Assembly (NCBI GenBank): GCA_002328585.1
Contig: DCUV01000032.1
Coordinates: forward strand, 189,569-253,568
From: Spirochaetia bacterium UBA2205
GTDB taxonomy: Bacteria > Spirochaetota > UBA4802 > UB4802
Reading direction: 5' to 3'
Length of the DNA: 64,000 nt
Part shown: piece by piece, positions 17,078 to 54,244 of the stretch
How the letters are laid out: each line of letters begins with the position of its first letter
How positions within the stretch are numbered: the first letter of the stretch is position 1
The notes under the pieces: generated by a model
What the model saw: only the letters and a program-made list of their open reading frames with translations
Database searches by the model: none
Told to the model about the DNA's origin: nothing
Made by a program: the position numbers and the translations under genes

Positions 17078-17449
17078 TTATTTTTGCTCCCGGGTATACT
17101 TTGATGGGCATTTAACCAATATTTTATCTGCTTCAAACATCTGTTTTTTGTTATTATAGATGCCGATTGCAACAACGCTGGTAGCATGTTCAAAGTTCAA
17201 CGGTTTGGCACCCCTGTATAGTACCGTCATCCGTTCCAATGCATTATCTTCTATCACAAATATAAAACCATCTGTGGTATTCTGCACAGGCACTGTTTTA
17301 ACCAGCCTGCCAATTATCTGAACATAATCGGGATTATTCTTTGCATCATCAAAGGGAACATACGGTGTTAAAAGCCCCTTAAACGAAAAGAGTGCTACAG
17401 CAGAACATATAACAATGATTGCCACAATAATGATCTTACTTTTTGCCAT
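17078..17449 (-). CDS. ccmE: cytochrome c-type biogenesis heme chaperone CcmE, CxxxY variant
   Basis: N-terminal TM anchor and an OB-fold-like body. The C-terminal LVKCPSKY occupies the position of the canonical LAKHDENY heme-binding HxxxY. Confidence 0.75.
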   Translation of the reverse strand: MAKSKIIIVAIIVICSAVALFSFKGLLTPYVPFDDAKNNPDYVQIIGRLVKTVPVQNTTDGFIFVIEDNALERMTVLYRGAKPLNFEHATSVVAIGIYNNKKQMFEADKILVKCPSKYTREQK

Positions 17450-17609
17450 TGACCCTCTTTTCCAGCTGTTTTATTTTACGGTGTAAAACAACAAGATAGC
17501 ACACTATTCCACACCATACAACCGCAGATACCCAGAAAAGCGTTTTTGAATAATTTGAATCTGTCTGCGCCAAAAACTGCATTGCGGTAACTATCGCATA
17601 TAATTTCAT
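17436..17609 (-). CDS. ccmD: heme exporter protein CcmD (small membrane protein)
   Basis: 57-aa ORF missing from the ORF track (<60 aa). Its ATG lies 1 nt after the ccmC stop and it overlaps the ccmE start by 14 nt. Single TM helix plus a basic tail (HRKIKQLEKRVNGKK). Confidence 0.55.
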   Translation of the reverse strand: MKLYAIVTAMQFLAQTDSNYSKTLFWVSAVVWCGIVCYLVVLHRKIKQLEKRVNGKK

Positions 17610-17610
17610 A

Positions 17611-18258
17611 CTATTCCTCGTGCAATTTTGATTTCAGTACATAAATCCGCACCCACAATCCAAGCAATATATAGTACAAAAGAGTAAATGATACCAACGA
17701 TATAGCAAGCACCAATCGCATTTCTGTATCCAGCATCAATTGTCCCTGAGCATTAATGACAGGCTCAGGATGCAGTGTTGGGTAAAGCCGTGGTGCTACA
17801 AAGATTAAAAATGGTGATGCAACAAACGCAATGATGAGATACACACTTTCTAACATAGGGGCTTTTGGATTACCGCTAACAATCTGTTGCAGGCTGAAAT
17901 AGGCAATATACAATAAAAGCAATAGTGTGATGGAGGTTTCACGCGGGTCCCAGTTCCAGTAACTGCCCCACATAACCTTTGCCCACAACGAGCCAGTAAT
18001 TACGGTAAGGATGCTAAAAAAAAGACCTATGTGTGCAGAACTTCGTGCATACACTATATAGTTTATTTTTGACTTTTTCAAAAACGATAGCGAAGCAATA
18101 CCTGCTACTGCAAAAGCCAAACACGATACCCACGCAAGAGGCACATGGAGGTATACTATACGGCTTGTTTCCCCTAATATAGCCGCTGGAGGCACCCATA
18201 TATAGATTAAATACAATGACAGCATCATGACAATGCCATTTAATAGTATTACAATCAT
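17611..18258 (-). CDS. ccmC: heme exporter protein CcmC
   Basis: WGSYWNWDPRE WWD motif, about 6 TM helices. Confidence 0.85.
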   Translation of the reverse strand: MIVILLNGIVMMLSLYLIYIWVPPAAILGETSRIVYLHVPLAWVSCLAFAVAGIASLSFLKKSKINYIVYARSSAHIGLFFSILTVITGSLWAKVMWGSYWNWDPRETSITLLLLLYIAYFSLQQIVSGNPKAPMLESVYLIIAFVASPFLIFVAPRLYPTLHPEPVINAQGQLMLDTEMRLVLAISLVSFTLLYYILLGLWVRIYVLKSKLHEE

Positions 18259-18275
18259 AGCTATTCTCGTTACTA

Positions 18276-18938
18276 TTAAAATTCGCGCCAGATATAAGGA
18301 AATAATAAATACGATACCATTCCCAGAACCATTGAAAACGCAAGTAGAAAAATTATAGCGCTTAATGGAGAAAAAACCTGCTGTTCAAAGCACCTGGCTG
18401 TAGATTGTATTGCAACAGTAAAAAGCGGTAATACCACCGGGAAAGCCAATATGGTAAACAACCCTCCCCGTGCACCGGCTAATGCTGCAATAGCTCCTAT
18501 AACCGTTGTTGCAAAAGCAAGCGATAAACTTCCAGCAATGAGTATTGCTATAAGATAGATACCGTGATAGACAGAAACTGAGATAACAAAGACATAGATA
18601 ATGATGACCATAATGGCAATAACAACCATTACACAACAATTAATCAAAAGTTTTGAAAGATAGATAACAACAGCCGGATAATGTATTACACCAAACAGTG
18701 CAGTCGACTCTTCTATTTCTCTGAAAAAAACATGCGATAGCGTATTCATCCCGGAAAAAAAAATGATTATCCATAGTATAGCAGCATGGAGTAAAGGACT
18801 ATTGATGATACCACCTGTTGCAAATCCAATGGAAATAGTAACAATGACACTGAATGATAAGACAATTGAAACGATAATACGACTTCTGAATTCAATCAAT
18901 ATATCCTTCTGGATGTTCCGCCATAATGCCTTAATCAA
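18276..18938 (-). CDS. ccmB: heme exporter permease CcmB
   Basis: 220-aa polytopic membrane protein between ccmA and ccmC. The conserved FSRE-like region (FFREIEEST) fits CcmB. Confidence 0.75.
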   Translation of the reverse strand: MIKALWRNIQKDILIEFRSRIIVSIVLSFSVIVTISIGFATGGIINSPLLHAAILWIIIFFSGMNTLSHVFFREIEESTALFGVIHYPAVVIYLSKLLINCCVMVVIAIMVIIIYVFVISVSVYHGIYLIAILIAGSLSLAFATTVIGAIAALAGARGGLFTILAFPVVLPLFTVAIQSTARCFEQQVFSPLSAIIFLLAFSMVLGMVSYLLFPYIWREF

Positions 18939-19527
18939 GCACTATACTCCTTTTACAAAAGTTCAACTCATGAGCATCATTTGTTGCAATGAAAATAGCC
19001 GTTGTTGGCTGTACTTTCTCCAGTAAAGAAAAAAGCACCCTTTTACCCTGCTCATCCAGATTGCTGCCGGGTTCATCTAAACAAAGTACACTGGCTTTTT
19101 TTAAAAATGCAAGTGCTAACTTAACACGCTGAATCATACCTGTGGAATAAAACATAAGCATGGTATTGCTATGGGGCGATAGTCCCAGTACATCTAAAAG
19201 CTGCACTGCATCATCATCAACAGTCCCAATTGCAAACGTAATATTTTCAAGTGCAGTCAGATATTTATACACATTAATATACGGTGCAGCAAAACCAATA
19301 TAGTTTCTGATATATGCAGTATCAACAGGTTTATCATTATACCAGTATGCAACGTTTCCACTATCAGGTGTCATAACTCCTGCTATAATCTTAAGCAAGG
19401 TTGACTTGCCACTTCCATTAGGACCTGCAATGGCAAGGGACTGCCCTGTAGCAACACTAAATGACATATCCCTGAATAACATTCTGGTATACCGTTTTGA
19501 AAGATTACTGGCTTTAACCGTTACCAC
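18931..19527 (-). CDS. ccmA: heme exporter ATP-binding protein CcmA
   Basis: Walker A GPNGSGKST, an ABC signature-like STGMIQR and Walker B LCLDEP. Confidence 0.85.
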   Translation of the reverse strand: MVTVKASNLSKRYTRMLFRDMSFSVATGQSLAIAGPNGSGKSTLLKIIAGVMTPDSGNVAYWYNDKPVDTAYIRNYIGFAAPYINVYKYLTALENITFAIGTVDDDAVQLLDVLGLSPHSNTMLMFYSTGMIQRVKLALAFLKKASVLCLDEPGSNLDEQGKRVLFSLLEKVQPTTAIFIATNDAHELNFCKRSIVLD

Positions 19528-19533
19528 AACACC

Positions 19534-20925
19534 TTACAATATAATATCTTTTTTTGCAGTTGCCATCTCAATAATATCAAGTTTGACAGCTTTTTCCTTC
19601 ATTACGGTATCAACTGCTTTTTGATCAGCAATTCTGTACAGCAACCGCACCTTGATAGTATAGCTACCTTTTAAGCCTTTTGGTAAAATAATGGTGCTGG
19701 TAATTTTTTGTTTGGGTGGAATCCTGTTGTCAGAGAGTACCTCCTTAGCTTTTGCAATGTTCATAACTGGCTTGCCGTTACCATCACCAAAAACAGTTTT
19801 AAAAATTATTGTATTATTGGGCAAATAACCCTTTTTATCAGCCTTCCCTACTGCATACACCTCTCTTCCATACTGATTGACAACTACTATCTCAAGCCAC
19901 ATCTGCCGCACATCAGTAAGCCCTGTTGGAAGTTTATGACCGGCACCAACATTGGTTACAGCAATACCAACCGTACCACTGTTACTGTCACCGGTTTCAA
20001 TTTCCAGCAGTGCTGCATTTTTCAACCGTTCCTGTGCCATCTTGGCTTTCACAGTATCCTTAAATAATCCAGGGATAACACTATTTCCGCCAACAAAATA
20101 ATGAGTAAAGATATGATCACGTTGTGGACCGCCAAACGCTGCAAAACCGGGATTAGCAGGGCGAGGCGTCGAGCCGGTTGCAGGCACCCCTGGTCGGTGA
20201 TACATGTGACAACCCTGACAGGGCACCGTTGTTTTGGAGTCACCGGTGTTATAGGGGCTTTTTGACCATTCCTCAAAGGTTGTCTCCAATTTTGTTCCAT
20301 AAACCACATGACGTACATCATGGCATGTCCCGCAAAAATCAGCTTTTGTATGGAATGATGAATATGCTGCTGTATGCCAATCGGGATTAGCATCCTTAAA
20401 AGGTCCACGCTTTACTCCAGGATCCGCCTCACCATTACCTGGTTTATACACAAATCGTGCGTTGTAATGTTTCTTTGCTTCAACAATAGTATGACAGTAA
20501 TCGCACTGTATACCTTCCATGGTTATTTGTGGCAGGTCCTTTTCCATGGATAATTCTTCAGTTACCGATAATGGCTTACCAGTAATATATCCCACAGGGA
20601 TGTGGCATTTTACACAGCTTTCTGCCTCTTTTAGTTCATCATTATTGACAGGATTTTGACTTTTGCTATCATCCAGATAAAACCGTGCAAACTCTTTATA
20701 GATGATATCCTTTTGAGCTACATTATGCATGGAATTTTTCCACTGTTCATATATCTCATCATGACAACCACCACATGTGGAAGGATTGATAAACTGTGCT
20801 AATGTATAATGAGGCGTTGATTTGCAGCCAAGAAAAAGTGCATACCCAACACATAAAACAAAACTAACGGTAATTATTATTTTTGATTTCATACTGTATC
20901 CCTTACTCCTGTTTATTCTCATCAT
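19534..20925 (-). CDS. pentaheme c-type cytochrome lipoprotein
   Basis: Lipobox LFLGC. Five CxxCH motifs (CGGCH, CVKCH, CDYCH, CGTCH, CQGCH). No CxxCK. About 220-aa non-heme C-terminal region. Confidence 0.85.
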   Translation of the reverse strand: MMRINRSKGYSMKSKIIITVSFVLCVGYALFLGCKSTPHYTLAQFINPSTCGGCHDEIYEQWKNSMHNVAQKDIIYKEFARFYLDDSKSQNPVNNDELKEAESCVKCHIPVGYITGKPLSVTEELSMEKDLPQITMEGIQCDYCHTIVEAKKHYNARFVYKPGNGEADPGVKRGPFKDANPDWHTAAYSSFHTKADFCGTCHDVRHVVYGTKLETTFEEWSKSPYNTGDSKTTVPCQGCHMYHRPGVPATGSTPRPANPGFAAFGGPQRDHIFTHYFVGGNSVIPGLFKDTVKAKMAQERLKNAALLEIETGDSNSGTVGIAVTNVGAGHKLPTGLTDVRQMWLEIVVVNQYGREVYAVGKADKKGYLPNNTIIFKTVFGDGNGKPVMNIAKAKEVLSDNRIPPKQKITSTIILPKGLKGSYTIKVRLLYRIADQKAVDTVMKEKAVKLDIIEMATAKKDIIL

Positions 20926-31500: not shown

Positions 31501-33309
31501 TTATTTGTTTTTATTAATAATTATCTCATAGTCCCTGCCGGCATTCCAGAAAATATACCCCTGTGTGCCGGTATCAGTACATGCCTGTATCTGCTTCTGT
31601 ATATAGTCATATCCCCAGCCCGGGGAAAGCATGTTAAACGCCTGCAGGTAAGGGCGCACTGTTGCCTTTGAATTGATATATGCCCTGCTAATACTTTCAC
31701 GCACTATTGTATAATAACCCTCTGAGGTTATCTTCCCATTAAAAAATTTCCTCCCATAGTGCGACGGATACACCATAGGGCAGAGCACATCCACAATGCC
31801 TGTCATTGCCTCAATATCCTGCCCTAACCATTGACCAAATTCATACCATACAGTAAATCCATACACATCTGCTGATACAGGCACGGCAAGCGATGCTTTT
31901 GCTGTACGCAAAAAATCGGTAATGGCTTCATACTTATATATGCCGTTATCCGGTTTAAAGGTAAACACACATCTATTGACCGGGCCATCCGTAGGGAAGC
32001 GTACATAGTCAAACTGTATCTCATCAAAGCCTGCATCCTGTGCCTGCTGTGCAATCGCAATGGTATACCTGTGTACAAACTCGCTGTACGGATCAACCCA
32101 GTATTCTTTTGGATTTCCCTGCCATGCCTTTTTTGTTGCAGCATCAACAATTGCATACGTATGCTTAAAACCATTAAATAAATGCTTATCCTTAAAAACC
32201 ACCATACGCCCTATTACCTGTATGCCATTGGCGTGACAATAATTGCACAGCTCATGTAAAGGCAGTGATGATTGCAAAGCACCTATCACACCTGCTGTTT
32301 CATTGTTTATGCCATACACATTGCCATAATCATCTTTAATGTCAAACACCAGCGCGTTGCATCCTGAGCGTTTTGCATACCCCACACACTTTTTGATAGC
32401 CTGCCATGAGGTAGGCGTGGCGGCATATAATCCTCTAATGGAATCGTTTCTGGTTTTCGCTGCTTTTACAAAAATATAATGGGTGCCATCGGTCAATACG
32501 GCACAACAAAAGTTTTTTGGCGATAGTTCCTGATAAACAAATGTTCCGTTGTTATTTACAACCAGTTTATCACCATCAACTATCGCCCAGCCACCTTCGT
32601 AAAGAGAACATCCATAGTAATGACCGCCATTCCCTGCAAACACCATCTTCCAGCCTGACGCACCGTATGAATATACCTGCGGTGTAAAATGTGTTGCCGC
32701 CCGTACCGGCGAGCCACCGGAAACATGCGCAATTGTTTCATAAAAGCCAATGCTGTCCGAATACATCTTCCTGGGCAAACCGCCGTTTACTGCAACAAAC
32801 CTGTTTGCCGTATGACGGTATATGCCATTCCACGATGTTCCCACAACAAGCTGCCCGCCCTTTGCATAGAGCGCAGTAATACATGCATTGGCAGGAAGTC
32901 CTGCTAATGGTATAACCTCCCAACGTTTGCCCGCATCACCTGATGTATACAGCGTGTATTTTGTTGCACAGTACATACGGGTGGGGTCATAGCCATCAAC
33001 ACAAAATGCTGATATGCTTCGATACTGATTACACGGTGAATGTATGGTGCGTGTATATGCGCTTGCAGGGGTTATATTTTCCCAGTAACTATCGCCACCA
33101 TTATTTTTAAAAATACCATGCTGCGATGTTGTAAGGTATATGATTTTCCCATGAACCTGAATATCATTGATGGCAATGTTTGCTGATAATCCTTTACATT
33201 TTTCTTCATGATAATATAAAAAGCCATTGTTTTGTACCAGCAATGGCTTCCATGAAGCATATACCGTTGAAGAAAAAACAAGAATAAGGCTAAGCGCTAA
33301 ACTTTTCAT
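31501..33309 (-). CDS. secreted BNR-repeat protein with C-terminal putative glycoside-hydrolase TIM-barrel (DUF4015-like) domain
   Basis: Signal peptide, Asp-box (SGDAGKRW), and C-terminal motifs FDEIQFDYVRFP and MVYPSHY typical of GHL/DUF4015 domains. Confidence 0.6.
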   Translation of the reverse strand: MKSLALSLILVFSSTVYASWKPLLVQNNGFLYYHEEKCKGLSANIAINDIQVHGKIIYLTTSQHGIFKNNGGDSYWENITPASAYTRTIHSPCNQYRSISAFCVDGYDPTRMYCATKYTLYTSGDAGKRWEVIPLAGLPANACITALYAKGGQLVVGTSWNGIYRHTANRFVAVNGGLPRKMYSDSIGFYETIAHVSGGSPVRAATHFTPQVYSYGASGWKMVFAGNGGHYYGCSLYEGGWAIVDGDKLVVNNNGTFVYQELSPKNFCCAVLTDGTHYIFVKAAKTRNDSIRGLYAATPTSWQAIKKCVGYAKRSGCNALVFDIKDDYGNVYGINNETAGVIGALQSSLPLHELCNYCHANGIQVIGRMVVFKDKHLFNGFKHTYAIVDAATKKAWQGNPKEYWVDPYSEFVHRYTIAIAQQAQDAGFDEIQFDYVRFPTDGPVNRCVFTFKPDNGIYKYEAITDFLRTAKASLAVPVSADVYGFTVWYEFGQWLGQDIEAMTGIVDVLCPMVYPSHYGRKFFNGKITSEGYYTIVRESISRAYINSKATVRPYLQAFNMLSPGWGYDYIQKQIQACTDTGTQGYIFWNAGRDYEIIINKNK

Positions 33310-34972
33310 GGAACATGCTCTCGTTCATGATGATATAGGTGTATCCTTGCTCGGTTAAAAAAAGTTGGCGGTTATGAGCAAAATGTTCCTCAACCGTATG
33401 AGCGGTAATGATTGAATAAAAGTAAGCGGTATTATCGCCTGGCTTTGGGCGCAAAATCCTCCCCAGCCGTTGTGCCTCTTCCTGCCTTGAACCAAATGTG
33501 CCTGACACCTGAATGGCAACGTTTGCATCCGGCAGGTCAATAGAAAAATTTGCAACCTTTGATACAATGAGCCGCGTAATAGTACCATCTCTAAATTGTT
33601 TGTAGAGCTCTTCGCGCTCCTTTACCGGTGTACTTCCGGTTATGATAGGATAGTTAAAACGCTCTTTTATTATTTGCAACTGATCAATATATTGTCCAAT
33701 AATCAATATTCTGTCTTTGGGATGTGCGTTGAGGAGCCTTTCAATGTAGTATAGTTTTTTTTCGTTTTCTGATGCTATTCTAAATTTTTGCCTGTCGCCT
33801 GCCACGGTGTATTGATAGCGTATGCTTTCAGGCAGTTCAATGCGTATCTCGGAACAGATTGCCTTTGCAATCCAGTTGCATTCTTCCAGCATCTTCCATG
33901 GCATATCAAATTTTTTAGGCCCAATGAGGCTAAATACATCTGTCTCAAGTCCATCCTCGCGCACCAGTGTGGCGGTAAGCCCTAACCTGCGTTTTGATTG
34001 AATCTCGGCAGTCATCCTGAACACTGGAGCTGGCAGTAGATGTACCTCATCGTATACAATAAGCCCCCAGTTGTTTTCCGTAAACAGTTTAAAATGTTTA
34101 AATTCATCTTCTTTTTTTCGACGGTAGGTTAATATGTTATAGGTGGCGATAGTTACCGATTTTATATCCTTAACATCACCGGAATACTCACCAATCATGT
34201 CAGGTGGTAGTGTTGTCTTATCCAGCAGTTCATCAATCCACTGGCGCAATGCAACGGTGTTGGTTACAAGGATAAGCGTCTTTGTTTGATAGATATGCAT
34301 GATGCCCATCCCAACAATGGTTTTCCCCGCACCACAGGGAAGCACAACAACACCGCTTCCCCCTTCATCACTGCCATGCCTATAAAAGCTGTTTATTGCG
34401 TTTTGTTGATAATCACGGATAACAAACGGACTACCACTTTGCGTAACCGTTCGCAATGCAAATGGACAGGGGTCACCATCAATATAGCCGGCTTTATCCT
34501 CAACAGGAAATCCTATTTTTATAAGAGCCTGTTTTATATGTCCACGACTGTATGGTTTTATTACCAGTTCATAGTCGGATAACTGGCTATCAATAAACTT
34601 TTGTATGGATTTATGGGTAACTATCTCACGAATGATATGAGCATCATTACTTTGCAATATACAATTTTCATTGTGTTTTATTAATGTCAAAAGTCCATAC
34701 CGCTGCATCTGTTCTTTAATGGTGGTGACAACAATTGATGGTACATCATACCGGGAATACTGTGCAATTCGCTCAAGTATTTCTTTTGTAGTTAATCCCG
34801 ATGATGCTGCATTCCACAGGGATAATGGTGTGATCCTGTATGTATGTATATGTTCAGGACTTTTTTCAAGTTCGGCAAATGGAAGAATAGCATCCCGCAC
34901 CTCTTCATATAGCGGGTTGTCTACTTCCAGCAGCAGAGTATTATCACTCTGAACGATAAGTGGCTGTATCAT
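33290..34972 (-). CDS. XPB/Ssl2-family DNA repair helicase (SF2)
   Basis: RDYQQNAINSF, SGVVVLPCGAGKT (Walker A), VYDEVHLLPA (DEVH box), GLTATLVRED, and the N-terminal XPB damage-recognition-like domain. Confidence 0.85.
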   Translation of the reverse strand: MIQPLIVQSDNTLLLEVDNPLYEEVRDAILPFAELEKSPEHIHTYRITPLSLWNAASSGLTTKEILERIAQYSRYDVPSIVVTTIKEQMQRYGLLTLIKHNENCILQSNDAHIIREIVTHKSIQKFIDSQLSDYELVIKPYSRGHIKQALIKIGFPVEDKAGYIDGDPCPFALRTVTQSGSPFVIRDYQQNAINSFYRHGSDEGGSGVVVLPCGAGKTIVGMGIMHIYQTKTLILVTNTVALRQWIDELLDKTTLPPDMIGEYSGDVKDIKSVTIATYNILTYRRKKEDEFKHFKLFTENNWGLIVYDEVHLLPAPVFRMTAEIQSKRRLGLTATLVREDGLETDVFSLIGPKKFDMPWKMLEECNWIAKAICSEIRIELPESIRYQYTVAGDRQKFRIASENEKKLYYIERLLNAHPKDRILIIGQYIDQLQIIKERFNYPIITGSTPVKEREELYKQFRDGTITRLIVSKVANFSIDLPDANVAIQVSGTFGSRQEEAQRLGRILRPKPGDNTAYFYSIITAHTVEEHFAHNRQLFLTEQGYTYIIMNESMFHEKFSA

Positions 34973-45319: not shown

Positions 45320-46033
45320 ATGCCACAGGAATTTAAAGCTGGTTGTACTCGTCCCACACCTCCCGAAGAAGCCGTTAAACCAATCTCTACTGAAAATACT
45401 ATTCAAAAAAAGGAGGAGAATGCTATGATACACGTTGGTCAAAAAGCCCCGGATTTTTCGCTTCCCGCATACCTGAAAGGGAAATTTGTTGAGGTTAAGC
45501 TATCTGAATACATGGGAAAGTGGGTTGTGCTTTGTTTTTACCCCGGTGATTTTACCTTTGTCTGAGCTACAGAGGTTTCTGCGGTCGCAGAAAAATATCC
45601 TGAATTTCAAAAATTGGGCGTTGAAGTGCTTTCTGCAAGCGTTGATAGCGTTTTTGTCCATAAGATGTGGAACGATTTTGAATTGTCAAAAATGGTAAAA
45701 GGTGGCATACCGTTCCCCATGCTTTCTGATGCTGGTGGAAATATTGGGACACTGTATGGTGTGTACAATAGCAGTGCCGGTGTTGAAAATAGAGGGCGTT
45801 TTTTAATTGATCCTGATGGTACCATTGTTGGCTATGAAGTTTTAACACCACCGGTTGGGCGTAATGTTCTGGAAACTATCCGACAAATTCAGGCTTTCCA
45901 ATTGGTTCGTGAATCTAAAGGAACTCAAGCAACACCTTCAGGATGGCGTCCGGGCAAAGACACGTTAAAACCAGCTCCCGATCTGGTAGGCAAGGTGTGG
46001 GAAGTTTGGTCTGTTGATAAAGCTTTTGATTAA
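45320..46033 (+). CDS. peroxiredoxin (AhpC/Prx1-like) with in-frame TGA at the peroxidatic position - candidate selenoprotein (Sec-Prx)
   Basis: ORFs 45320-45565 and 45614-46033 share one frame and are separated only by the TGA at 45563-45565. The conceptual read-through gives [17 protein letters not shown]..., matching FYPLDFTFVCPTE. An alternative start is the ATG at 45425 ([11 protein letters not shown]); both starts are preceded by AGGAGG. Confidence 0.75.
45576..45593 (+). promoter_or_regulatory. candidate bacterial SECIS hairpin (UUCUGC-GGUC-GCAGAA)
   Basis: 7-bp stem with a GGUC apical loop beginning 11 nt 3' of the in-frame UGA. The spacing and G/U-containing loop resemble the E. coli fdhF SECIS. 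Confidence 0.6.
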
Positions 46034-46129: not shown

Positions 46130-47071
46130 ATGAGCTATACAGCATATTGCTTTCATCCACATTATTTAAACCATATAACAGGGGATTCCCATCCTGAATC
46201 CCCTAAACGCCTTGAACAATTAGATAAATATATCCGTAATAATAACAATTATTCATCATTGCTGTATGTCCAGCCACGGAAAGCAGACCCAAAAGTGTTA
46301 TCTTATGCTCATGATATTAATTATATTCAATCAATAGCCAATGCAAAACCCAATGGTATAACCTGTATTGATGGGTATGATACAGTAATATGCGATGAAA
46401 CGTATGATGTATCATTATGGGCAGTAGGTGGTATTTTAGAGGTATGTGACTATATCATGGCTGGTGAAGCTCACAATGGATTTTGCGCCATTCGCCCTCC
46501 GGGTCATCATGCGGAGATAGCTCAGGCTATGGGTTTTTGCATATTTAATAATATAGCAATAGCTGCTCGCTATTTACAGTATACTTACAATATCCAGAAA
46601 ATTGCTATTATTGATTGGGATGCCCATCACGGCAATGGTACTCAGCATATTTTTGAAGCCGACCCTTCTGTTTTTTATATCAGCCTCCACCAATTCCCTT
46701 TTTATCCCGGTACCGGCAGTGTTGATGAAATTGGCATTGGACCCGGTTATGGATATACTCTTAATATTCCAATGAATTCGGGAAGCAATGATAAAACCTA
46801 TAAAAGTGCATTCACTGAAATCATAATCCCTGCACTTGATCATTTTCAACCGGAATTTATATTAATATCAGCCGGTTTTGATGCCCATAAAAGCGATCCC
46901 CTATCCTCATTAAATGTATCAAGTAGTGCGTACTACATGTTCACGCGAATGCTGTTAGATATTGCACATCAATATTCCAACAAACATGTGCTTGTAGTGC
47001 TTGAAGGTGGTTACGAAATCAATTCAATGATAGAAAGTGTTGACTATGTGCTGAAAGCCCTAATGGAATAA
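46130..47071 (+). CDS. histone deacetylase family protein (AcuC/HDAC-like amidohydrolase)
   Basis: HPESPKRL, and DWDAHHGNGTQ metal-binding motifs. Confidence 0.85.
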   Translation: MSYTAYCFHPHYLNHITGDSHPESPKRLEQLDKYIRNNNNYSSLLYVQPRKADPKVLSYAHDINYIQSIANAKPNGITCIDGYDTVICDETYDVSLWAVGGILEVCDYIMAGEAHNGFCAIRPPGHHAEIAQAMGFCIFNNIAIAARYLQYTYNIQKIAIIDWDAHHGNGTQHIFEADPSVFYISLHQFPFYPGTGSVDEIGIGPGYGYTLNIPMNSGSNDKTYKSAFTEIIIPALDHFQPEFILISAGFDAHKSDPLSSLNVSSSAYYMFTRMLLDIAHQYSNKHVLVVLEGGYEINSMIESVDYVLKALME

Positions 47072-48151
47072 TTAGCGAAAACTATATTCAATATAATTGT
47101 TATTAATAGAAGCCCTATCTACAAAATTACCATCCAGCGACTTGGATATTTGTAAAAAATGGTGCAAAAGGTGTGTTGCATCATCTGCATTCAGTACTCC
47201 GGGCTGTATAATCTGATCATCAAATTTACCTTTAATGGCATAGACACGTATTTTTGTTATTTTCCCTTCAGGGGCAATATATAAAGCGCATGCAATAGTA
47301 TCATTGATACCTTCATGCTTTGATCCAAATAAAAAATTTCCCAGTGAATAGATAATAGGTTTGTTTTTATATATTTCAATACCCTGATAAACATGCGGAT
47401 GATGACCAGCAATAACATCTGCTCCAGCATCTATCAGCGCATGAGCTATTTCAATCTGTTTTGAAGAAGGATAGTAAAAATATTCATTACCCCAGTGAAG
47501 ATTAATAACAATGAAATCTGCAAAATTATATTTTTGAATATCCTGTATAGCCTTTGATAATTCAAAAAAATTTACACCGGGGTTGCCCCTCGCAACCATA
47601 TCCCTGGAGCAGATTTGAGTATAGCATATAATCACCATCTGCATGGCACCCAATTTATAAAATATTGGCCGAGAAGCTGTTGTTTCATTAATCCCTGCTC
47701 CTGCATATACTATACCATAAGAAGAAAGAGCAACAAGCGTGTCGGTTAACCCGCCAATACCATAATCTAACATATGATTATTTGCTATGGTCACGGCCTG
47801 TATACCTGCTTTATTCAGCAGGTGAGCAGTATCCATAGTTGCTTTAAAGATATATTTTTTATCAAGAGAACTATCGCCAAAACCTTTATTGGTCAAAGGT
47901 GCTTCCAGATTTGCCATGACAAAGTCAAATGAATGTAAAAAGCTTTGTATGTTTTGCAGGGGATAATCAGCACCCTTTTTGCTCATAGTATCATTAACTG
48001 CCCATTCAAACATCATATCGCCAACAAAAAGAACACTGCTTTCTGAAGATAATGCTGGATACTGCTCTGGTACGCGATACCCGGCAGTTGAGCAGCATAA
48101 TCCAGCGTGCAACAACAGCACTATAATGAAACCAATTCTTTGCACTTTCAT
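47072..48151 (-). CDS. CapA-family poly-gamma-glutamate synthesis-like metallophosphatase
   Basis: N-terminal anchor/signal, and GNHMLDYG, INLHWGNEY, IAGHHPHV motifs. Confidence 0.75.
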   Translation of the reverse strand: MKVQRIGFIIVLLLHAGLCCSTAGYRVPEQYPALSSESSVLFVGDMMFEWAVNDTMSKKGADYPLQNIQSFLHSFDFVMANLEAPLTNKGFGDSSLDKKYIFKATMDTAHLLNKAGIQAVTIANNHMLDYGIGGLTDTLVALSSYGIVYAGAGINETTASRPIFYKLGAMQMVIICYTQICSRDMVARGNPGVNFFELSKAIQDIQKYNFADFIVINLHWGNEYFYYPSSKQIEIAHALIDAGADVIAGHHPHVYQGIEIYKNKPIIYSLGNFLFGSKHEGINDTIACALYIAPEGKITKIRVYAIKGKFDDQIIQPGVLNADDATHLLHHFLQISKSLDGNFVDRASINNNYIEYSFR

Positions 48152-48834
48152 TAATGCCCTTTCTGGATATAAGGATACAGATAAAGCTCACCTGCTATAA
48201 AATCCTTTATATTGGGCAAGTCTTCAACATCCTGCATCTGCGATGCAATAAGCGATTCTGGATACGAGCATTGAAACTCCTTTATTGATATATGGAAGTG
48301 ACGTGCCTGAATTAATAATTGTAAAAAAGCAGTATCAGAAAATTCTGTTATTTCAAAACTATCACAATGCTTCATTGCAATCCCTTTAACAGGTGACAGG
48401 GGGTCAACGATATACAATCCTGTTTCATTATTCAGGTAGGTAACAATTTCTTCATAAAACCCTTTAGGAGCGCTGTATGAGGAAGGTAGTCTATTCCCTG
48501 TAATAATATCTGATGATTCAAAATGCTGAACGTAAGTTGCTATTGCCTGCCAGCCGGTAAACGCTTCAACAGGCATTATAAATAGGTAGTGCAATGAAAA
48601 ATCCCGTGCATACGATAGTGCACTGACCAGCGCTCCTCCATACCCCAACGGTTCTTCATGAATGACAAAATGTATTCCAGCATCAGCAAGTTCAGATGCA
48701 GATTCAATCTCCACGCCATCATTGATGACAAGTGGCATCATGTTGGGAAAAGGACATTCCTGTATATTGTCCAAATTCTTTTGTATCAATTCCTCATTAT
48801 TGCGGGCAATAAAAGCTGCTAATATATCACTCAT
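48151..48834 (-). CDS. glycosyltransferase family 2-like protein (divergent, no clear DXD)
   Basis: LVINDG...EEPLGYGGALVSALSYAR resembles the GT2 nucleotide-binding region. Overlaps its neighbours by 1 and 8 nt. Confidence 0.4.
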   Translation of the reverse strand: MSDILAAFIARNNEELIQKNLDNIQECPFPNMMPLVINDGVEIESASELADAGIHFVIHEEPLGYGGALVSALSYARDFSLHYLFIMPVEAFTGWQAIATYVQHFESSDIITGNRLPSSYSAPKGFYEEIVTYLNNETGLYIVDPLSPVKGIAMKHCDSFEITEFSDTAFLQLLIQARHFHISIKEFQCSYPESLIASQMQDVEDLPNIKDFIAGELYLYPYIQKGH

Positions 48835-49651
48835 GTGGTAACATCCTGTTTAAATTTCCTGATGAAAAACCTTCACAATCAACCGTTACGTATAAAAAAC
48901 CAAGTTCCTTTATAAAAGCAACAACTTTATTACGGAGGGTTGTATCCATAAAATATGCAATTTCTTCTTCTGGTATCTCAATACGTGCAATGGGATAATG
49001 ATACCGCACCCGTACCGCTGTAAATCCCAATCCGGCAATAAAAGTCTCTGCTTTTGCAATACTATCAAGCATATTATTTGTTATGTTAGTATGGTACGGT
49101 ATGCGCGTTGCTAAACATGAGTTGGAAAATTGTGCATGCGGTATCTGCATATCTGCCAGAGCACTATAAATATCATCTTTTGTTATGCCAGCCTCAACAA
49201 ACGGCGATAGTATCCCTAATTCTTCCAGCGCCTTTTTTCCGGGCCTATAATCGTTACAATCCGAAGCATTGCTTGCATCTATGACATTTATAAAACTATT
49301 AGCGTGTGCATACGCAAGAATATTTTTAAAAATTTCATGTTTACAGTAGTAGCACCGCATTTCAGTATTTGCTATAATCTGGCGATTGCTCATTACCGAT
49401 ACTGTAATCTCGTGATACGGGATACGATGGTTCTGTGCAAAATAACGGGCATATTCTGTTTCGCCCGGAATGGTAAATTCGCTGATGCAATGAACCGCAC
49501 AAAAATCCATACTCCGGCGCATAGATATTGCAGCAAGCAATGTTGAATCATTACCCCCGGAATATGCCACGATAAACGGCTGGAGTTTTCTCAATATTTG
49601 ATGTACTTGTTCAATCTTTTTTTCATCCATACGGTAACCATTATACCACAA
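48827..49651 (-). CDS. PP-loop ATP pyrophosphatase, LarE-like (TIGR00268 family)
   Basis: SGGNDS PP-loop, and a CYYCK cysteine pair at the position of the LarE sacrificial Cys. Confidence 0.6.
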   Translation of the reverse strand: MWYNGYRMDEKKIEQVHQILRKLQPFIVAYSGGNDSTLLAAISMRRSMDFCAVHCISEFTIPGETEYARYFAQNHRIPYHEITVSVMSNRQIIANTEMRCYYCKHEIFKNILAYAHANSFINVIDASNASDCNDYRPGKKALEELGILSPFVEAGITKDDIYSALADMQIPHAQFSNSCLATRIPYHTNITNNMLDSIAKAETFIAGLGFTAVRVRYHYPIARIEIPEEEIAYFMDTTLRNKVVAFIKELGFLYVTVDCEGFSSGNLNRMLPHE

Positions 49652-49689
49652 ATACCTTTTAGTGCAACTACTCTATAGAATCAATGTAT

Positions 49690-51246
49690 CTAAAACCATG
49701 CGGTTGCACCAAATTCACCTTTACCATTTTTTATGTGCGATAGCTCCGATAATAACCTCAATGACAGTTGACATAATCTGCTGCGATAACTTACCCGCAT
49801 AGCCAGATAAACGGCTGTACTGGAACAGGCTTCAGTTAGTATATTGCTGTTTGATAAGGGAAGCATTGCGCAGTACACCTTTTTACCATTACTGTTTACA
49901 TAGACAACACTCATGGCATGCTGTAGAGAACCCCACTGGACCCCATAGCCTGATCTGATATACCATGCTGAATCATCTCCCGTATATAGTCCGTATTTCA
50001 TATTCAGTGATACATTTTTTGTAACCATCCAATCCAGCCCTGTTTGATACCGCGAATCCTGCTGCTCTGCACCTTCTTTATACAATGTCATGAGGCGATA
50101 ATCCGTTTGTATCTGTAAGGATTGTATAGTAAACGTTGTCCTGATACAATGAAGTCGTTTATGAGGATATTCAGCATAATATGTTGATGGTACAAGATAG
50201 TTCTGGTCAATGTATGCCCATGAAAACAGCATCCACCTGATTGGTTTTATCTGAGCTGAATAATAATAAATATCACGTGGCGCATTACCGCCAAATGAAC
50301 TGCTGAATGGAGCATAGAAATATCGTTCTGTTTTTTGTATTATGCTGCGAAGTTGTATGCCTTTCTTTTTAACGGTAATCCCATACAGGTAAGCATTGTT
50401 GTATTGTGATGGTGAAGAGCTATTGCCTTTTACCTCTTTTTGTGCGATAGCCCACTCAGTAAATACTGTTAATATGTTATCCTGATATCTTCCATACAGG
50501 CTATACCCTCCAAACGACTGTAATGCTGTTCCATTCCCATTATCTTTATCAAATACTATTTTTGTATTCTCATGATATAATCCCGTATGGTAATAGCATC
50601 CCTGCACAACAACATATTCAAAGGGCTGCAACGTTACATTGGCAAAATAGGTGATAATATTAACTGGTTCGGAATATAATCCATCCTTGCTATCATGTGA
50701 AAGCAAACCACTAATACTGTAAGGATACAGCTTTTCCTCAACATCATCAGATCGCATAAATCGCTCCTGCAATGATGCTCCGATACGCAATCGTACCTGC
50801 GGCTTGTTTAATCTATCATAGAGTGATAGAACTATTCCATGCATCGCGTAGTCAGGGTTTCCGCTTTTACATAGTGATATCCCCGTTTCGCCGCTCCGTA
50901 CAGGGAATGAGTATGGATCAGGATTATAAACAGCAGGCTTACCCAGCAACAGCCCTGATGCATTATGGATAAAATAATATCCAGCTACTATTGCCGCATA
51001 TTCTCCTGTATTGCTAAAAGCCCATGTTGCCGTTGTTTTCCCATTATTTGTTTTTATCAGTGTTGCATAAACCTTTGCATAATCTGTTGTGACACTTATT
51101 GAGGAACGTAGATATCGTTGCGTATCAGCTTCATAATCCATGGCATCCTCTCTATATTCAACTGATACGGTACTCAACGCCACCACTGCATGAAAAAACA
51201 CCACCGTAAATACCATGCTTAACAGTGCAACTATTGTATTCCGCAT
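49690..51246 (-). CDS. large outer-membrane beta-barrel protein (hypothetical)
   Basis: Signal peptide. Aromatic-rich alternating strands throughout. The C-terminal ...ATAWF has the terminal Phe typical of OMP barrels. Confidence 0.5.
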   Translation of the reverse strand: MRNTIVALLSMVFTVVFFHAVVALSTVSVEYREDAMDYEADTQRYLRSSISVTTDYAKVYATLIKTNNGKTTATWAFSNTGEYAAIVAGYYFIHNASGLLLGKPAVYNPDPYSFPVRSGETGISLCKSGNPDYAMHGIVLSLYDRLNKPQVRLRIGASLQERFMRSDDVEEKLYPYSISGLLSHDSKDGLYSEPVNIITYFANVTLQPFEYVVVQGCYYHTGLYHENTKIVFDKDNGNGTALQSFGGYSLYGRYQDNILTVFTEWAIAQKEVKGNSSSPSQYNNAYLYGITVKKKGIQLRSIIQKTERYFYAPFSSSFGGNAPRDIYYYSAQIKPIRWMLFSWAYIDQNYLVPSTYYAEYPHKRLHCIRTTFTIQSLQIQTDYRLMTLYKEGAEQQDSRYQTGLDWMVTKNVSLNMKYGLYTGDDSAWYIRSGYGVQWGSLQHAMSVVYVNSNGKKVYCAMLPLSNSNILTEACSSTAVYLAMRVSYRSRLCQLSLRLLSELSHIKNGKGEFGATAWF

Positions 51247-52472
51247 GCAGCCCTGACCATTTTTTGCTGATAGGTATCAAGACTTCTATATAATGGCGAT
51301 TGCAGTATCCCCTGTATACCCGCCTTTTGATATTCCTCAGCCAGTACTATGGCAATATCCGACGGTATATCGGCAGCTAACATAGACTGAAAGAGCCTTT
51401 TTATTTTTTTATTCTGCTCTTCTTTTGATATATATGTTCTGCCTTGATATTTCTTATGGTAATCCTTTTTTTCGTCTTTGTCATCATCACAATAATTACA
51501 GGTAACCTCCTGCAATTGACGTATCTGCTGTGTTGTAAATCCCAGCTGATATAATGATCTTGTGCTGACGGCTCCAAACATCTCTCTAAATTTGATAATA
51601 CGCTGACACAAGACATCAGGTGCAATACCCAGAGCAATAAGCTCCTGTTGGCTGCATGTCTGTATATTGAGCTTTATTGCAGTATTTTGTTTATATTCAC
51701 TATGAGCCGGGAAAGCATATCCCGCGCTTGCATAGGTTATCCCAAATCTATGCGTGTTTCCCAGAAATGAATGATGCTGAAGCATATAGTAAAGAAGGAT
51801 ATTGCCCCATGCAACATTCACACCGGCTGAAGATAGTTCCAGTTCCTTACTATATCCAACCAGTACGCTTACATGCCTGGTTATATATCCGTTTATCCAT
51901 ATACATTGCTGTATATCCCCATCATAGGAAAGCGTATATTCAACAGCACATCCATCAAAAATATCAGCATTGCATGAAAATATTGTAGTTGGCGTAATAT
52001 ACTCATCATCGCCGTAATGCTGTATATTGTTGGTGAATAAAGTGCACGACAATCGTTCGAAGGGTGTTACCGTAGCCAGCAATCCATAATCAACACTATG
52101 TTTTGTTGCAGTAAACTCTTCAGTTTTTATTGAAAGAATATAGTCATGTACCCTGCAACCCACCTTTATCCAGTGAGCTATCGCCCAATCAAGCCCTGCG
52201 GATAGTGTATCCTCACGATACTCGGGTATGCCAAAATAATGCCACCGTATTCCACCTTCATATTCTTTCCCCTTGTAGGCAACATTTGAATTTGTTTCTT
52301 TAAGCTGAGGAAAGCCAAAAGGATTTGCATAGCTAAGGCTGCACACAAATGCAGGGTAGTTGCTGTACAATTTTCCCAATAACGGGTCCTGCACATGTAA
52401 CGGTAATGCTACTTTATATGCATTTTCAAACGCGCCTATAAGCATAGTTATTGTCAGCAGCAATGAACCCAT
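51231..52472 (-). CDS. beta-barrel domain protein with C-terminal ComEA-like helix-hairpin-helix DNA-binding domain
   Basis: N-terminal signal peptide, then about 280 aa of beta-strand-like alternation (IRWHYFGI, CIWINGYITRHVSVLVGYS, RFGITYASAGYAF). After that, QQELIALGIAPDVLCQRIIKFREMFGAVSTRSLYQLGFTTQQIRQLQE matches the ComEA HhH consensus. Confidence 0.55.
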   Translation of the reverse strand: MGSLLLTITMLIGAFENAYKVALPLHVQDPLLGKLYSNYPAFVCSLSYANPFGFPQLKETNSNVAYKGKEYEGGIRWHYFGIPEYREDTLSAGLDWAIAHWIKVGCRVHDYILSIKTEEFTATKHSVDYGLLATVTPFERLSCTLFTNNIQHYGDDEYITPTTIFSCNADIFDGCAVEYTLSYDGDIQQCIWINGYITRHVSVLVGYSKELELSSAGVNVAWGNILLYYMLQHHSFLGNTHRFGITYASAGYAFPAHSEYKQNTAIKLNIQTCSQQELIALGIAPDVLCQRIIKFREMFGAVSTRSLYQLGFTTQQIRQLQEVTCNYCDDDKDEKKDYHKKYQGRTYISKEEQNKKIKRLFQSMLAADIPSDIAIVLAEEYQKAGIQGILQSPLYRSLDTYQQKMVRAACGIQ

Positions 52473-53455
52473 TACTCAACCACGATGCAATAAAATTTTT
52501 TACTCTCGCAGTTGGCATTGTCCTGAGCCTCAGCAATACCAAGATATAACCCACAGGTAAGATGCTTGATAGTATTGGTCCAATCAACCAGCTGGAAACC
52601 AGGCAATGCGGCAATCAGTGGGCTTTCGTATATTTTGTAGCCTATAGAGGAAAACAGGCGTATCCTGAGCCTGCATGGCTGGACAGCAAAAACGGAAAGC
52701 TGCTGTATATTTTTTTTAGAAACAACTATCTTGCGTTTAATTTTTATGAATTCTGACCTTGAATGATTTATTGGCAAAATATTGGTGCGCCCTGCCGTTT
52801 GATATGATGTAATGACAAAATCGTTATGACCATTACTATCCACCCCGCTTTTGCGGATAATACTTTGATATTCCAAAATTCCGCTTTGACCAATATCAAC
52901 CATGCACTCTTCACTGGCAGAAGCACCTGCCCATTGATTATGTTGCATAGCGCTTTGAAGATATTGCCCAATTGATTGGTTAAGTGTACCATCCCTGTTG
53001 GAATAAGCCACAAAATCAATTATCCCGCCATTTGACGGCTCATCATCACTATCTATTGCTACCACACAATCGGTATTCCATAAACTGTTGATATAGTTAT
53101 TGCAATAGACATCAAGAACGCCATTGCTATTGGTATCTCCAGTAACATCACACTCATCTGTCACACCTGGTTTTGTAGGATGCACAACAACAAACCTGTC
53201 ATCCCATGGTGTTTCAACTCTATCATAGCTGTATATTGTCACAGGATATTGCGAAAGCGGTTCACTGGTTCCATAATACATGGTTACATACAGCGATGAA
53301 ATATCCAATGATAGCTTCTGCTCAGAGCAGCAAAACAGCTCAACCCAATCGCCCCCTGGTACATTGCAGGCTATTTCATTAATGAGCAGTTGTGGATAAC
53401 CAATAGAAGTGTGGAACAAACACACAATAACAATAATCCAGCGCATACAAATCAT
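52472..53455 (-). CDS. lamin-tail-domain (LTD) secreted protein
   Basis: Signal peptide followed directly by LLINEIACNVPGGDWVELF, the classic LTD N-terminal motif. Its stop overlaps the next start (TAATG). Confidence 0.65.
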   Translation of the reverse strand: MICMRWIIVIVCLFHTSIGYPQLLINEIACNVPGGDWVELFCCSEQKLSLDISSLYVTMYYGTSEPLSQYPVTIYSYDRVETPWDDRFVVVHPTKPGVTDECDVTGDTNSNGVLDVYCNNYINSLWNTDCVVAIDSDDEPSNGGIIDFVAYSNRDGTLNQSIGQYLQSAMQHNQWAGASASEECMVDIGQSGILEYQSIIRKSGVDSNGHNDFVITSYQTAGRTNILPINHSRSEFIKIKRKIVVSKKNIQQLSVFAVQPCRLRIRLFSSIGYKIYESPLIAALPGFQLVDWTNTIKHLTCGLYLGIAEAQDNANCESKKFYCIVVE

Positions 53456-53572: not shown

Positions 53573-54244
53573 TTGCTTGACCAACTAAATTTAAATGGAA
53601 AAGTATTTGCCATGGTAAAGCTCGATAATCCTTATTCACAGTATCGCCCCACATGGAAGGTTTTTATTCCAATGGTTGTGATGTACCCGTTATTGAAAGT
53701 AGCGATGCAGTATGCGTATTTTTCTTTTTTATATCAGTATAGCATTGTGCTTTTATTGTTAATTGTCATTGCACAATATTGTGATAAAGGACTCTTTACA
53801 AAAGAGCGGATTTTTGTCTTTGACCTTCCTTTTGAACGGAAGATATTTTACCTCATGGTCATGGTCATTATCCTGATCCCTATCCGTAATATAGCCATAC
53901 AATTTACACAAAATCCTCAAACGTTACACTTCTATCAGGGGCAGATGCCATTGCTGGAGTCAATGCTTGTAATGGTAGCTATTATTGCGCCATGTGAAGA
54001 GCTTTTTTTCAGGGGATTTGTACAATACAACCTTAGCTTTTATTTTGGGAAATATGGGGCGATAGTTATTGGCGCATTATTCTATAGTTTGATAGGGGCA
54101 GCCGCACATTCACTATACCTTGCAGTCATCTTCTTCTTCATTGGCATAACGATAGGATATATCTACAGCAAGGTAAAATCACTGCTGCAATCTATATTTC
54201 TTCATGTCATAACCATTATTTTTATGTATATCTATCCCTTTTAA
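53573..54244 (+). CDS. CPBP-family intramembrane metalloprotease (CAAX protease-like)
   Basis: EELFFRG (motif 1) and FxxxH-like AAAHSLY. Multiple TM helices. Confidence 0.75.
   Translation: MLDQLNLNGKVFAMVKLDNPYSQYRPTWKVFIPMVVMYPLLKVAMQYAYFSFLYQYSIVLLLLIVIAQYCDKGLFTKERIFVFDLPFERKIFYLMVMVIILIPIRNIAIQFTQNPQTLHFYQGQMPLLESMLVMVAIIAPCEELFFRGFVQYNLSFYFGKYGAIVIGALFYSLIGAAAHSLYLAVIFFFIGITIGYIYSKVKSLLQSIFLHVITIIFMYIYPF

Follow-up and report, generated by a model that had tools for sequence, protein, structure and literature searches.

In the 64-kb stretch of Spirochaetia bacterium UBA2205 DNA analysed here (the window), six tightly packed genes fall into two modules. The functional unit is genes 1–3, an outer-membrane module whose second protein carries a ComEA-type helix-hairpin-helix (HhH) tail on an outer-membrane barrel, and for which a DNA-related role is the best single reading. 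Genes 4–6 are a separate lineage-specific module, co-transcribed downstream of this trio. The preliminary description had treated all six genes as one system, which is not borne out: conservation of the neighbourhood covers genes 1–3 only. It had also failed to recognise the combination as a described system, and the literature we searched holds no description of the trio.

The local layout is as first reported. ORF coordinates (Table 1) confirm the tight packing on the minus strand, the TAATG junction of genes 1 and 2 at 52472, the 16-nt overlap of genes 2 and 3 at 51231–51246 and the 38-nt gap between genes 3 and 4, which becomes ~59 nt if ATG 49630 is, as is probable, the true start of gene 4. 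Genes 4 and 5 overlap by 8 nt and genes 5 and 6 by 1 nt. Scanning the operon for promoter and terminator consensus sequences gave no more than shuffled sequence did, and Rfam and tRNA searches returned no match in the window.

Table 1 Features of the six-gene operon (window coordinates).
Feature	Position	Strand	Description
Gene 1	52472..53455	-	ORF of 327 aa; secreted acidic two-domain beta-sandwich protein, probably Ca-binding
Gene 1 N-terminal domain	52751..53392	-	aa 22-235; beta-sandwich with helical insert and Asp-rich loops
Gene 1 C-terminal Ig-like domain	52475..52738	-	aa 240-327; resembles T9SS C-terminal sorting domains
Gene 2	51231..52472	-	413 aa; outer-membrane barrel with ComEA-type HhH tail
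Gene 2 barrel	51729..52352	-	aa 41-248; 14 antiparallel strands, FadL/PorV type
Gene 2 ComEA-type (HhH)2 domain	51498..51677	-	aa 266-325; hairpins degenerate in the window's clade
Gene 2 C-terminal helical domain	51246..51425	-	aa 350-409; HhH-like AGIPA hairpin, ends at conserved Cys410
Gene 3	49690..51246	-	518 aa; predicted large outer-membrane barrel
Gene 4	48827..49651	-	LarE-family PP-loop ATP-dependent sulfur transferase; outside the conserved trio
Gene 5	48151..48834	-	GT2-derived, DDG motif kept, DXD absent; outside the conserved trio
Gene 6	47072..48151	-	CapA/PGA_cap metallophosphatase fold; outside the conserved trio

A scan of one genome per species recovered at least 87 relatives. 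When only Spirochaetota loci with room for all three genes are counted (~78, all from uncultured members), genes 1–3 keep their order and overlap or abut one another in nearly all of them; the flanking genes differ by locus and include Lon, a nitroreductase, the CCA-adding enzyme, an acyl-CoA dehydrogenase and MerR. The neighbourhood check therefore succeeded for genes 1–3 and failed for genes 4–6, since LarE, GT2-like and CapA genes together lie downstream of the trio in two sub-clades only. About three quarters of the trio loci have none of genes 4–6 nearby. In the close clade the whole region is syntenic, flanks included, so that the co-location of the six genes there carries little weight.

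Gene 4 is recognised as LarE by TIGR00268 (240 bits, cutoff 150), and 12 homologues share its motifs SGGNDS, RCYYCK and SNSCLATR. It had been called a sacrificial-sulfur enzyme; judged by its motifs (SGGNDS together with CxxC...C), it belongs instead to the [4Fe-4S] class of LarE, as the two classes are defined in PMC9283937. No LarA, LarB or LarC was seen among the annotated parts of the window. Gene 5 scores 18.1 bits against Glycos_transf_2 (PF00535), below the cutoff of 23.3 that its close homologues pass, and the reported lack of a DXD motif extends to 14 of 14 homologues, which have LPLE or LDxx instead. The CapA assignment of gene 6 is secure (PGA_cap, PF09587, 236.6 bits, E = 4e-70), and its N-terminus is a signal or lipoprotein-like sequence. 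Because neither CapB nor CapC is encoded in the operon or its flanks, the locus is probably not one for PGA synthesis.

These results bear directly on the proposal that all six genes make and anchor a new surface polymer, with genes 4–6 responsible for synthesis and genes 1–3 for export and anchoring. Translational coupling of the six genes in the window speaks for it, as does retention of the downstream block in the window's clade and in two further loci (L036 and L041), with six more loci in which the trio is followed by CapA alone or GT2 alone. Only genes 1–3 travel together, however, which leaves this reading without a basis; it must also contend with the many trio loci that have no genes 4–6 nearby, the little weight that co-location carries in the syntenic close clade, a GT2-like protein without DXD, a LarE that is a cofactor-type sulfur insertase, and the absence of CapB/CapC and of polymerase or flippase genes. 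We consider it very unlikely.

For gene 2 AlphaFold predicts a closed antiparallel barrel of 14 strands, the same number as the segments found by a crude period-2 hydrophobicity count. N-terminal to the barrel lies a hatch-like segment that bears the family motif AFEYR...NPAxLP. Its top structural match is FadL, but it lacks sequence-profile membership in the FadL/TodX/OMPP1 family, which in turn lacks a C-terminal HhH extension. The Pfam models Toluene_X, PorV and PorP_SprF matched neither the window protein nor any of 45 relatives; a single outgroup protein matches PorV weakly (17.9 bits, cutoff 27).

The claim of a barrel fused to a ComEA-type HhH domain stands at the level of the family. 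On its own, the window protein scores 13.1 bits against HHH_3 (PF12836; E = 0.1, gathering score 27 bits). Among its relatives, 44 of 45 match at E ≤ 1 (best 2.8e-11), with 30–38 bits for distant family members and 75–131 bits for outgroups, and the family profile matches crystal structures of ComEA (8DSS, 3e-6; 8DFK, 1e-4) as well as EEPD1 (2.6e-13). The hairpins of the window protein read GIA and GFT rather than GIG, the first without Pro-Gly, so that the two canonical G-h-G hairpins of DNA-backbone contact are absent from this protein (L-GIA, L-GFT); across the family the consensus hairpins read IPGLS and QIGL(T/S), and LPGIGP occurs in outgroups only. HHH_3-type matches overlap the PsbU and GspK Pfam families, and HHH_3-like domains are also found in proteins that do not bind DNA. 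A metagenome scan with INLNTATxEE, a generic ComEA motif, as its pattern gave mainly ordinary ComEA genes.

Beyond the (HhH)2 domain, a Lys/Arg-rich, disordered linker (aa 327–349) leads to the C-terminal helical domain. Per-column comparison shows Cys273 and Cys410 to be conserved across the family, which fits an exported domain, and the pair may form a disulfide. The tail is basic, with a family median net charge of +7 and pI of 9.5 (+4 and 8.8 in the window protein). The module is exported, basic and, at profile level, of the same type as ComEA. ComEA itself is soluble in the Gram-negative periplasm and anchored by one transmembrane helix in Gram-positives, whereas the gene 2 module is a C-terminal extension of a 14-strand outer-membrane barrel, with an extra HhH-like helical domain, a putative disulfide and, in the window's clade, partial loss of the hairpin glycines. 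The architecture was called unusual, and it is both real and unusual, with no description in the literature searched. A barrel always has its N-terminus in the periplasm, and one with an even number of strands has its C-terminus there too, from which we infer that all HhH modules lie on the periplasmic side of the outer membrane. Capture of extracellular DNA at the surface by the HhH domain, one of the roles first suggested, is unlikely for the same reason.

Gene 3 had been described as a 518-aa barrel ending in Phe. The C-terminal Phe is invariant and the sequence is barrel-like, with a signal-peptide-like N-terminus, period-2 hydrophobicity over its whole length (~22–24 segments after merging overlaps, a crude and indicative figure) and a conserved N-proximal motif, GNYxxxFGxGLLxGK...SGNPxY; the barrel itself is a prediction from these features. 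In a profile-profile comparison gene 3 aligns with the large outer-membrane proteins encoded at outgroup loci (hhalign Prob 95.7%, E = 1.1e-8, 416 columns), a homology that is significant only in this kind of comparison, as single-sequence hhalign is weak and a HMMER search from the gene 3 profile did not recover the outgroup proteins. These outgroup homologues share the barrel-like features of gene 3 and carry an N-terminal HhH of their own. No relationship between genes 3 and 2 was detected by hhalign.

Outgroup trios, among them L097, share the three-part layout with canonical LPGIGP hairpins and HhH modules on both barrels. In L098 and L099 the parts are an LTD+FlgD_ig protein, a barrel with two HHH_3 domains (131 bits) and an 801-aa protein with an N-terminal HHH_3. 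One outgroup trio (L014) adjoins a type IV pilin and a prepilin peptidase, a pilin neighbourhood seen at this outgroup locus only, and the outgroup-like L013 has a ComFB-domain gene two genes upstream. Among the genes seen beside the Spirochaetota trios there is none for ComEC, DprA, ComF or a secretin, and none of the 20 other annotated ORFs in the window is a competence gene. Since, in the window's clade, the hairpins are degenerate and gene 3 has lost its HhH, any role in DNA handling may be weaker or different there.

Gene 1 had been taken for a lamin-tail (LTD, PF00932) protein, an assignment that we could not uphold: none of 51 family members reached the threshold, three came to E ~0.1, and hhalign found no relationship to the human lamin A tail. 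The positional equivalent in L098 does pass the LTD model (35.5 bits, cutoff 34.3), and of this protein only the C-terminal domain (CTD) aligns with gene 1 (E = 0.0017). The likely start is ATG 53446, with AGGAG 9 nt before this second ATG, giving a protein of 324 aa that begins MRW. Its AlphaFold model (pLDDT 90.5) shows two domains, the first with the Asp-rich loop motifs DxTGDTNxNGxxD and DTDDDPxNGG, and the protein is secreted and probably Ca-binding. All 232 members of the family are unnamed proteins of Spirochaetota MAGs. The strong acidity of gene 1 (net −12, pI 4.9) argues against it as the DNA-capturing part and would make it a poor DNA receptor. When the profiles of genes 1 and 3 were compared with PDB sequences, the only matches, to MEF2 and designed repeat proteins, were spurious.

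Foldseek against the PDB gave only generic Ig-like matches for gene 1. The best structural match of its N-terminal part is the DUF4876 protein BT_1938, a proposed transporter lid (bioRxiv 10.1101/2023.03.17.533168). Along with the FadL-like structure and hatch-like NPAxL motif of gene 2, this match favours import of a small molecule or nutrient, in which gene 2 would be a FadL-type hydrophobic channel or gene 3 a specific porin, and gene 1 an extracellular lid or substrate-binding cap comparable to the lipoprotein lids of Bacteroides TonB-dependent transporters. We rate such a role as quite improbable.

The C-terminal domain of gene 1 invites comparison with type IX secretion (T9SS), whose cargo proteins use an Ig-like domain of this kind for docking on PorV/PorP barrels. 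In the PorE-PorP-PG1035 system of P. gingivalis and the SprB-SprF system of F. johnsoniae, as in the trio, the gene for an Ig-like-CTD protein lies beside that for a FadL-family 14-strand barrel and the complex contains a periplasmic tethering module; in the trio, however, an HhH fused to the barrel takes the place of the OmpA-like PorE, a second large barrel is required as a partner, and the host phylum is Spirochaetota. Type B CTD proteins of the T9SS bind adjacent PorP/SprF barrels (PMC9143113), a precedent for docking of a CTD on a barrel. On this model the trio could serve surface display and have no part in DNA handling: gene 1, a Ca-dependent surface protein for ligand binding or adhesion, would be exported through or beside gene 3 and held by its Ig-like CTD on a PorV/PorP-like gene 2, the HhH tail being a mere periplasmic tether or a pre-export receptor for the acidic gene 1, in the role that PorE plays to PorP. 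We regard this as unlikely, as it leaves unexplained the canonical, duplicated ComEA-type HhH on both outgroup barrels, and as all T9SS HMMs (Por_Secre_tail, CHU_C, TIGR04183, TIGR04131) stayed below threshold with gene 1. No T9SS core machinery (SprA/Sov, PorK/L/M/N) was found among the annotated ORFs of the window, and a T9SS translocon is not known from Spirochaetota.

We tentatively favour the reading of the trio as a gate in the outer membrane that admits DNA or another polyanion and carries its own ComEA-like grips on the periplasmic side. In such a gate the large gene 3 barrel would be the conduit and gene 1 an outer cap or receptor that docks by its CTD on the gene 2 barrel; the HhH tails would take hold of the DNA or other polyanion arriving in the periplasm. 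A ComEA-like ratchet would then be part of the outer-membrane proteins, in place of a soluble ComEA behind the PilQ secretin. The chief reservation is the degeneracy of the hairpin glycines in the window's clade; the lack of competence genes beside the Spirochaetota trios and the existence of HHH_3-like domains that do not bind DNA also count against this reading. We infer the gene 3 barrel, the contact between genes 1 and 2 and the topology. The narrower proposal of a secretin-independent DNA-uptake gate, possibly independent of type IV pili as well, in which two barrels bear ComEA-type ratchets under an LTD-like, CTD-bearing outer cap, is conceivable but doubtful.

Passage of DNA across the outer membrane is understood almost solely for the PilQ secretin/type IV pilus route. 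Transformation without this route occurs in Bacteroidota such as Riemerella, whose parts for it are barely characterised. In Riemerella anatipestifer a surface protein (RA0C_RS04920), an outer-membrane barrel (RA0C_RS04915) and a periplasmic protein with three HhH domains (RA0C_RS02645) have been shown by genetics to be required for DNA uptake that does not use type IV pili (PMC8459023). The trio has the same kinds of parts, namely a beta-rich protein at the surface, a barrel in the outer membrane and an HhH module that is exported. In the published description RA0C_RS02645 is a separate periplasmic protein and not a barrel fusion. The domain families differ (DUF5689, CarboxypepD_reg), and we claim no homology between the two sets. 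A barrel with a ComEA-type tail may likewise serve pilus-independent DNA handling at the outer membrane.

The presence of ComEA-type domains on barrels with fixed partners, in dozens of species and in distant lineages, makes the trio a testable candidate for a second route. Current pipelines label its proteins 'hypothetical' or, at best, 'ComEA family', and the picture of the operon is corrected here. The docking logic of CTD and FadL-type barrel known from the T9SS is hinted at outside the FCB group. If the proposed gate is real, it would be a DNA-uptake gate widespread in uncultured Spirochaetota and more canonical in other lineages; even if the ligand is not DNA, the trio adds three protein families that lack annotation, along with a new architecture of barrel plus periplasmic module.

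ORF calling recovered the six minus-strand genes at the positions assigned to them in the preliminary description, and the junctions it listed (a TAATG at 52472, a 16-nt overlap at 51231-51246 and a 38-nt gap ahead of gene 4) are present in the sequence. Genes 4 and 5 overlap by 8 nt, genes 5 and 6 by 1 nt. The most likely start of gene 1 is the second ATG at 53446 (MRW...), based on an AGGAG 9 nt upstream and on agreement with the called gene and its homologues, and that of gene 4 is most likely the ATG at 49630 (MDEKK...), matching homologues. The operon region is identical in contig DHGI01000070.1 (assembly GCA_002402695.1), and relatives of the window's proteins are labelled as Spirochaetota MAGs. 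The operon is flanked upstream by a divergent CPBP/Rce1-like intramembrane protease and at its end, with a 0-nt gap, by a convergent histone-deacetylase-family protein; both flanks are kept only in the window's clade.

A scan with the gene 1 alignment, using one genome per species, yielded 87 relatives, all in uncultured Spirochaetota and many labelled Leptospirales. When the 80 returned loci and those from the earlier searches were searched with a profile for each of the six genes, the gene order 1-2-3, with overlaps or gaps of a few bases, appeared in essentially every locus with room for it. Genes 4-6 directly follow this trio only in two groups, the window's clade and loci L036/L041; four other loci have just CapA after the trio and two just the GT2-like gene, and unrelated housekeeping genes flank the trio elsewhere. 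The six genes therefore do not form one conserved neighbourhood. Since the entire region is syntenic in the window's clade, flanks included, the six-gene block is weak evidence of shared function there, and we consider a single polymer system of all six genes very improbable. In the window, the gene for an XPB/ERCC3-like helicase overlaps one for a DUF4015 protein; this pair recurs in the distant locus L012, which may reflect remnant synteny or a looser association.

Individually, the product of gene 6 clearly matches CapA/PGA_cap (237 bits), in line with the earlier description. Gene 4 is indeed a LarE (TIGR00268, 240 bits versus a cutoff of 150); it is not of the sacrificial type, since the homologue alignment shows SGGNDS and a conserved CxxC...C (RCYYCK ... 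SNSCLATR), which marks the catalytic [4Fe-4S] class as opposed to the sacrificial Lactobacillus type (PMC9283937). Gene 5 falls below the Pfam threshold in the window, with close homologues above it, and by sequence is GT2-derived; the DXD reported missing is absent in 14 of 14 homologues, and a DDG motif is retained.

Elsewhere in the window, the only break in a peroxiredoxin (AhpC-TSA) frame is an in-frame TGA precisely where the peroxidatic Cys is expected (...FYPGDFTFV[TGA]ATEVSAV...), so that the gene likely encodes a selenocysteine peroxiredoxin. A hairpin 13 nt downstream of the TGA (UUCUGC-GGUC-GCAGAA; folding z-score only -1.7) could be a candidate SECIS. A cytochrome cluster suggests respiratory or extracellular electron-transfer capacity of this spirochaete.

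Features of the window and of comparison loci
Feature	Source	Position	Strand	Length	Description
Gene 1	Window	52472-53455	-		Beta-sandwich and Ig-like domain (predicted)
Gene 2	Window	51231-52472	-		Barrel (predicted) and ComEA-type HhH
Gene 3	Window	49690-51246	-		Large predicted outer-membrane barrel
Gene 4	Window	48827-49651	-		LarE
Gene 5	Window	48151-48834	-		GT2-like
Gene 6	Window	47072-48151	-		CapA
Protease	Window	53573-54244	+		CPBP/Rce1-like
Deacetylase	Window	46130-47071	+		Histone-deacetylase family
Peroxiredoxin	Window	45320-46033	+	81 aa + 139 aa	Reads as two ORFs
In-frame TGA	Window	45563-45565	+
Helicase pair	Window	31501-34972	-		XPB/ERCC3-like and DUF4015
Cytochrome cluster	Window	14921-20925	-		Cytochrome c assembly (ResB/CcsA-like), multihaem cytochrome (Cytochrome_C554/c7)
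Helicase pair	L012	6594-10194			Directly downstream of trio and GT2
Barrel-only region	L015	5649-10602
First protein	L098/L099			422 aa	LTD 35.5 bits (Pfam threshold 34.3); FlgD_ig at end
Aspartyl protease	L098	1615-1998		127 aa	Retropepsin-like; between LTD/CTD protein and HhH barrel
Aspartyl protease	L099	1383-1766		127 aa	As in L098
Barrel	L098/L099			440 aa	Two canonical HHH_3, 131 bits
Large protein	L098/L099			801 aa	N-terminal HHH_3, 75 bits
Barrel	L097			357 aa	HHH_3
Large protein	L097			647 aa	N-terminal HHH_3; follows barrel
First protein	L014			312 aa	CTD-bearing
Barrel	L014			530 aa	Two HHH_3
Large protein	L014			775 aa	HHH_3
Downstream genes	L014				Type IV pilin, prepilin peptidase, TPR protein

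For gene 2, a word-index search gave only 17 close relatives and an exhaustive profile search, cut at E<=1e-3, 379 cluster representatives; its full-length architecture recurs in about 80 of these. The AlphaFold model, run on the 17-sequence alignment, predicts 14 antiparallel strands (aa 41-248) followed by two helical parts, the HhH region (aa 275-323) and a second domain (aa 350-409), with a disordered linker between them. The window protein alone scores 13 bits against HHH_3; 44 of 45 relatives match it (best 2.8e-11), and the family profile matches the HhH repeats of EEPD1 (2.6e-13) as well as crystal structures of ComEA (8DSS, 3e-6; 8DFK, 1e-4). Together, these matches and the 14-strand model bear out the proposed fusion of a beta-barrel to a ComEA-type HhH. 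More distant relatives, those of the outgroup loci L014, L097 and L098/L099, sit in an equivalent three-gene arrangement whose domains are easier to recognise. The hairpins are degenerate, with IPGLS and QIGL(T/S) as the family consensus; in the window's clade even the first hairpin's Pro-Gly is gone. The tail is basic (family median net charge +7, pI 9.5; only +4 in the window protein), and conservation of Cys273 (60/78 sequences) and Cys410 (77/78) points to a putative disulfide and, through it, to an exported domain.

Gene 3 has a hydrophobic N-terminus and alternating hydrophobicity over its full length; its C-terminal Phe is invariant, and the motif GNYxxxFGxGLLxGK...SGNPxY is conserved. 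A crude strand counter, which also returned the 14 strands of gene 2, gave ~22-24 segments after merging of overlaps. Profile-profile comparison aligned 416 columns with the large HhH proteins of the outgroups (Prob 95.7%, E 1.1e-8), a homology that identifies Spirochaetota gene 3, at the profile level, as the same protein without the HhH. An (F/V)EYR motif directly follows the signal peptide in mature gene 2 (AFEYR...) and gene 3 (VEYRxDxxDY) proteins throughout both families (alignments A4 and A5) and might serve both proteins as a signal for recognition or assembly. The C-terminal sequence ...AYWQF is typical of outer-membrane proteins. In loci L015 and L016, gene 2 relatives consist of the barrel only (269 aa, no HhH), flanked by a 620-aa protein with this ending and a 585-aa protein (604 aa in L016), so the barrel pair may be older than the HhH fusion; it adjoins peptidoglycan genes there (amidase, racemase, Mur ligase).

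Neither gene 1, gene 3 nor the barrel part of gene 2 matched a Pfam or NCBIfam family. The protein collection contains 232 members of the gene 1 family, none of them named, and every labelled one is from Spirochaetota. The confident AlphaFold model of gene 1 (pLDDT 90.5) predicts an N-terminal beta-sandwich, a helical insert and a C-terminal Ig-like domain resembling a T9SS sorting domain (CTD). The sandwich carries Asp-rich loops of the DxNxNGxxD kind, with many invariant Asp, which are putative Ca sites; overall, gene 1 encodes a strongly acidic protein (net charge -12, pI 4.9; family median charge -13). Profile and structure comparisons gave no support on the window protein itself for the earlier lamin-tail (LTD) call. 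Its positional counterpart in L098 combines LTD and CTD, which makes LTD reasonable as distant ancestry, although only the CTD is alignable to gene 1. The retropepsin-like protease of L098/L099 could be a candidate CTD processor, comparable to PorU in the T9SS, and has no counterpart in the window. By analogy with the T9SS PorE-PorP-cargo pattern (PMC9143113), the trio might serve surface display, with the HhH tail as a mere tether; we regard this main rival as unlikely. Less likely than surface display are the polymer system and a nutrient importer of lid plus channel, the latter being improbable.

Our literature search found no published description of the barrel-ComEA fusion or the trio, and databases list these proteins as hypothetical, apart from one entry named 'ComEA family DNA-binding protein'. 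The domains are known; what is new is how they are combined and which partners go with them. Outer-membrane barrels with an even strand number have both ends in the periplasm. From this established topology, the C-terminal HhH of gene 2-type and the N-terminal HhH of gene 3-type proteins would share one periplasmic face. The simplest reading of two partner barrels that both turn ComEA-type domains towards the periplasm, next to a cap protein whose CTD would dock on a barrel, is that the pair lets DNA through the outer membrane and that the HhH modules hold the incoming polymer, as soluble ComEA does behind PilQ. We hold this reading tentatively, at somewhat less than even confidence, given the eroded hairpins of the window's clade and the lack of competence genes adjoining the trio in the Spirochaetota loci. 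Pilus-independent DNA uptake in Riemerella provides a precedent with the same kinds of parts: a surface protein, a barrel in the outer membrane and an HhH protein are all required there (PMC8459023).
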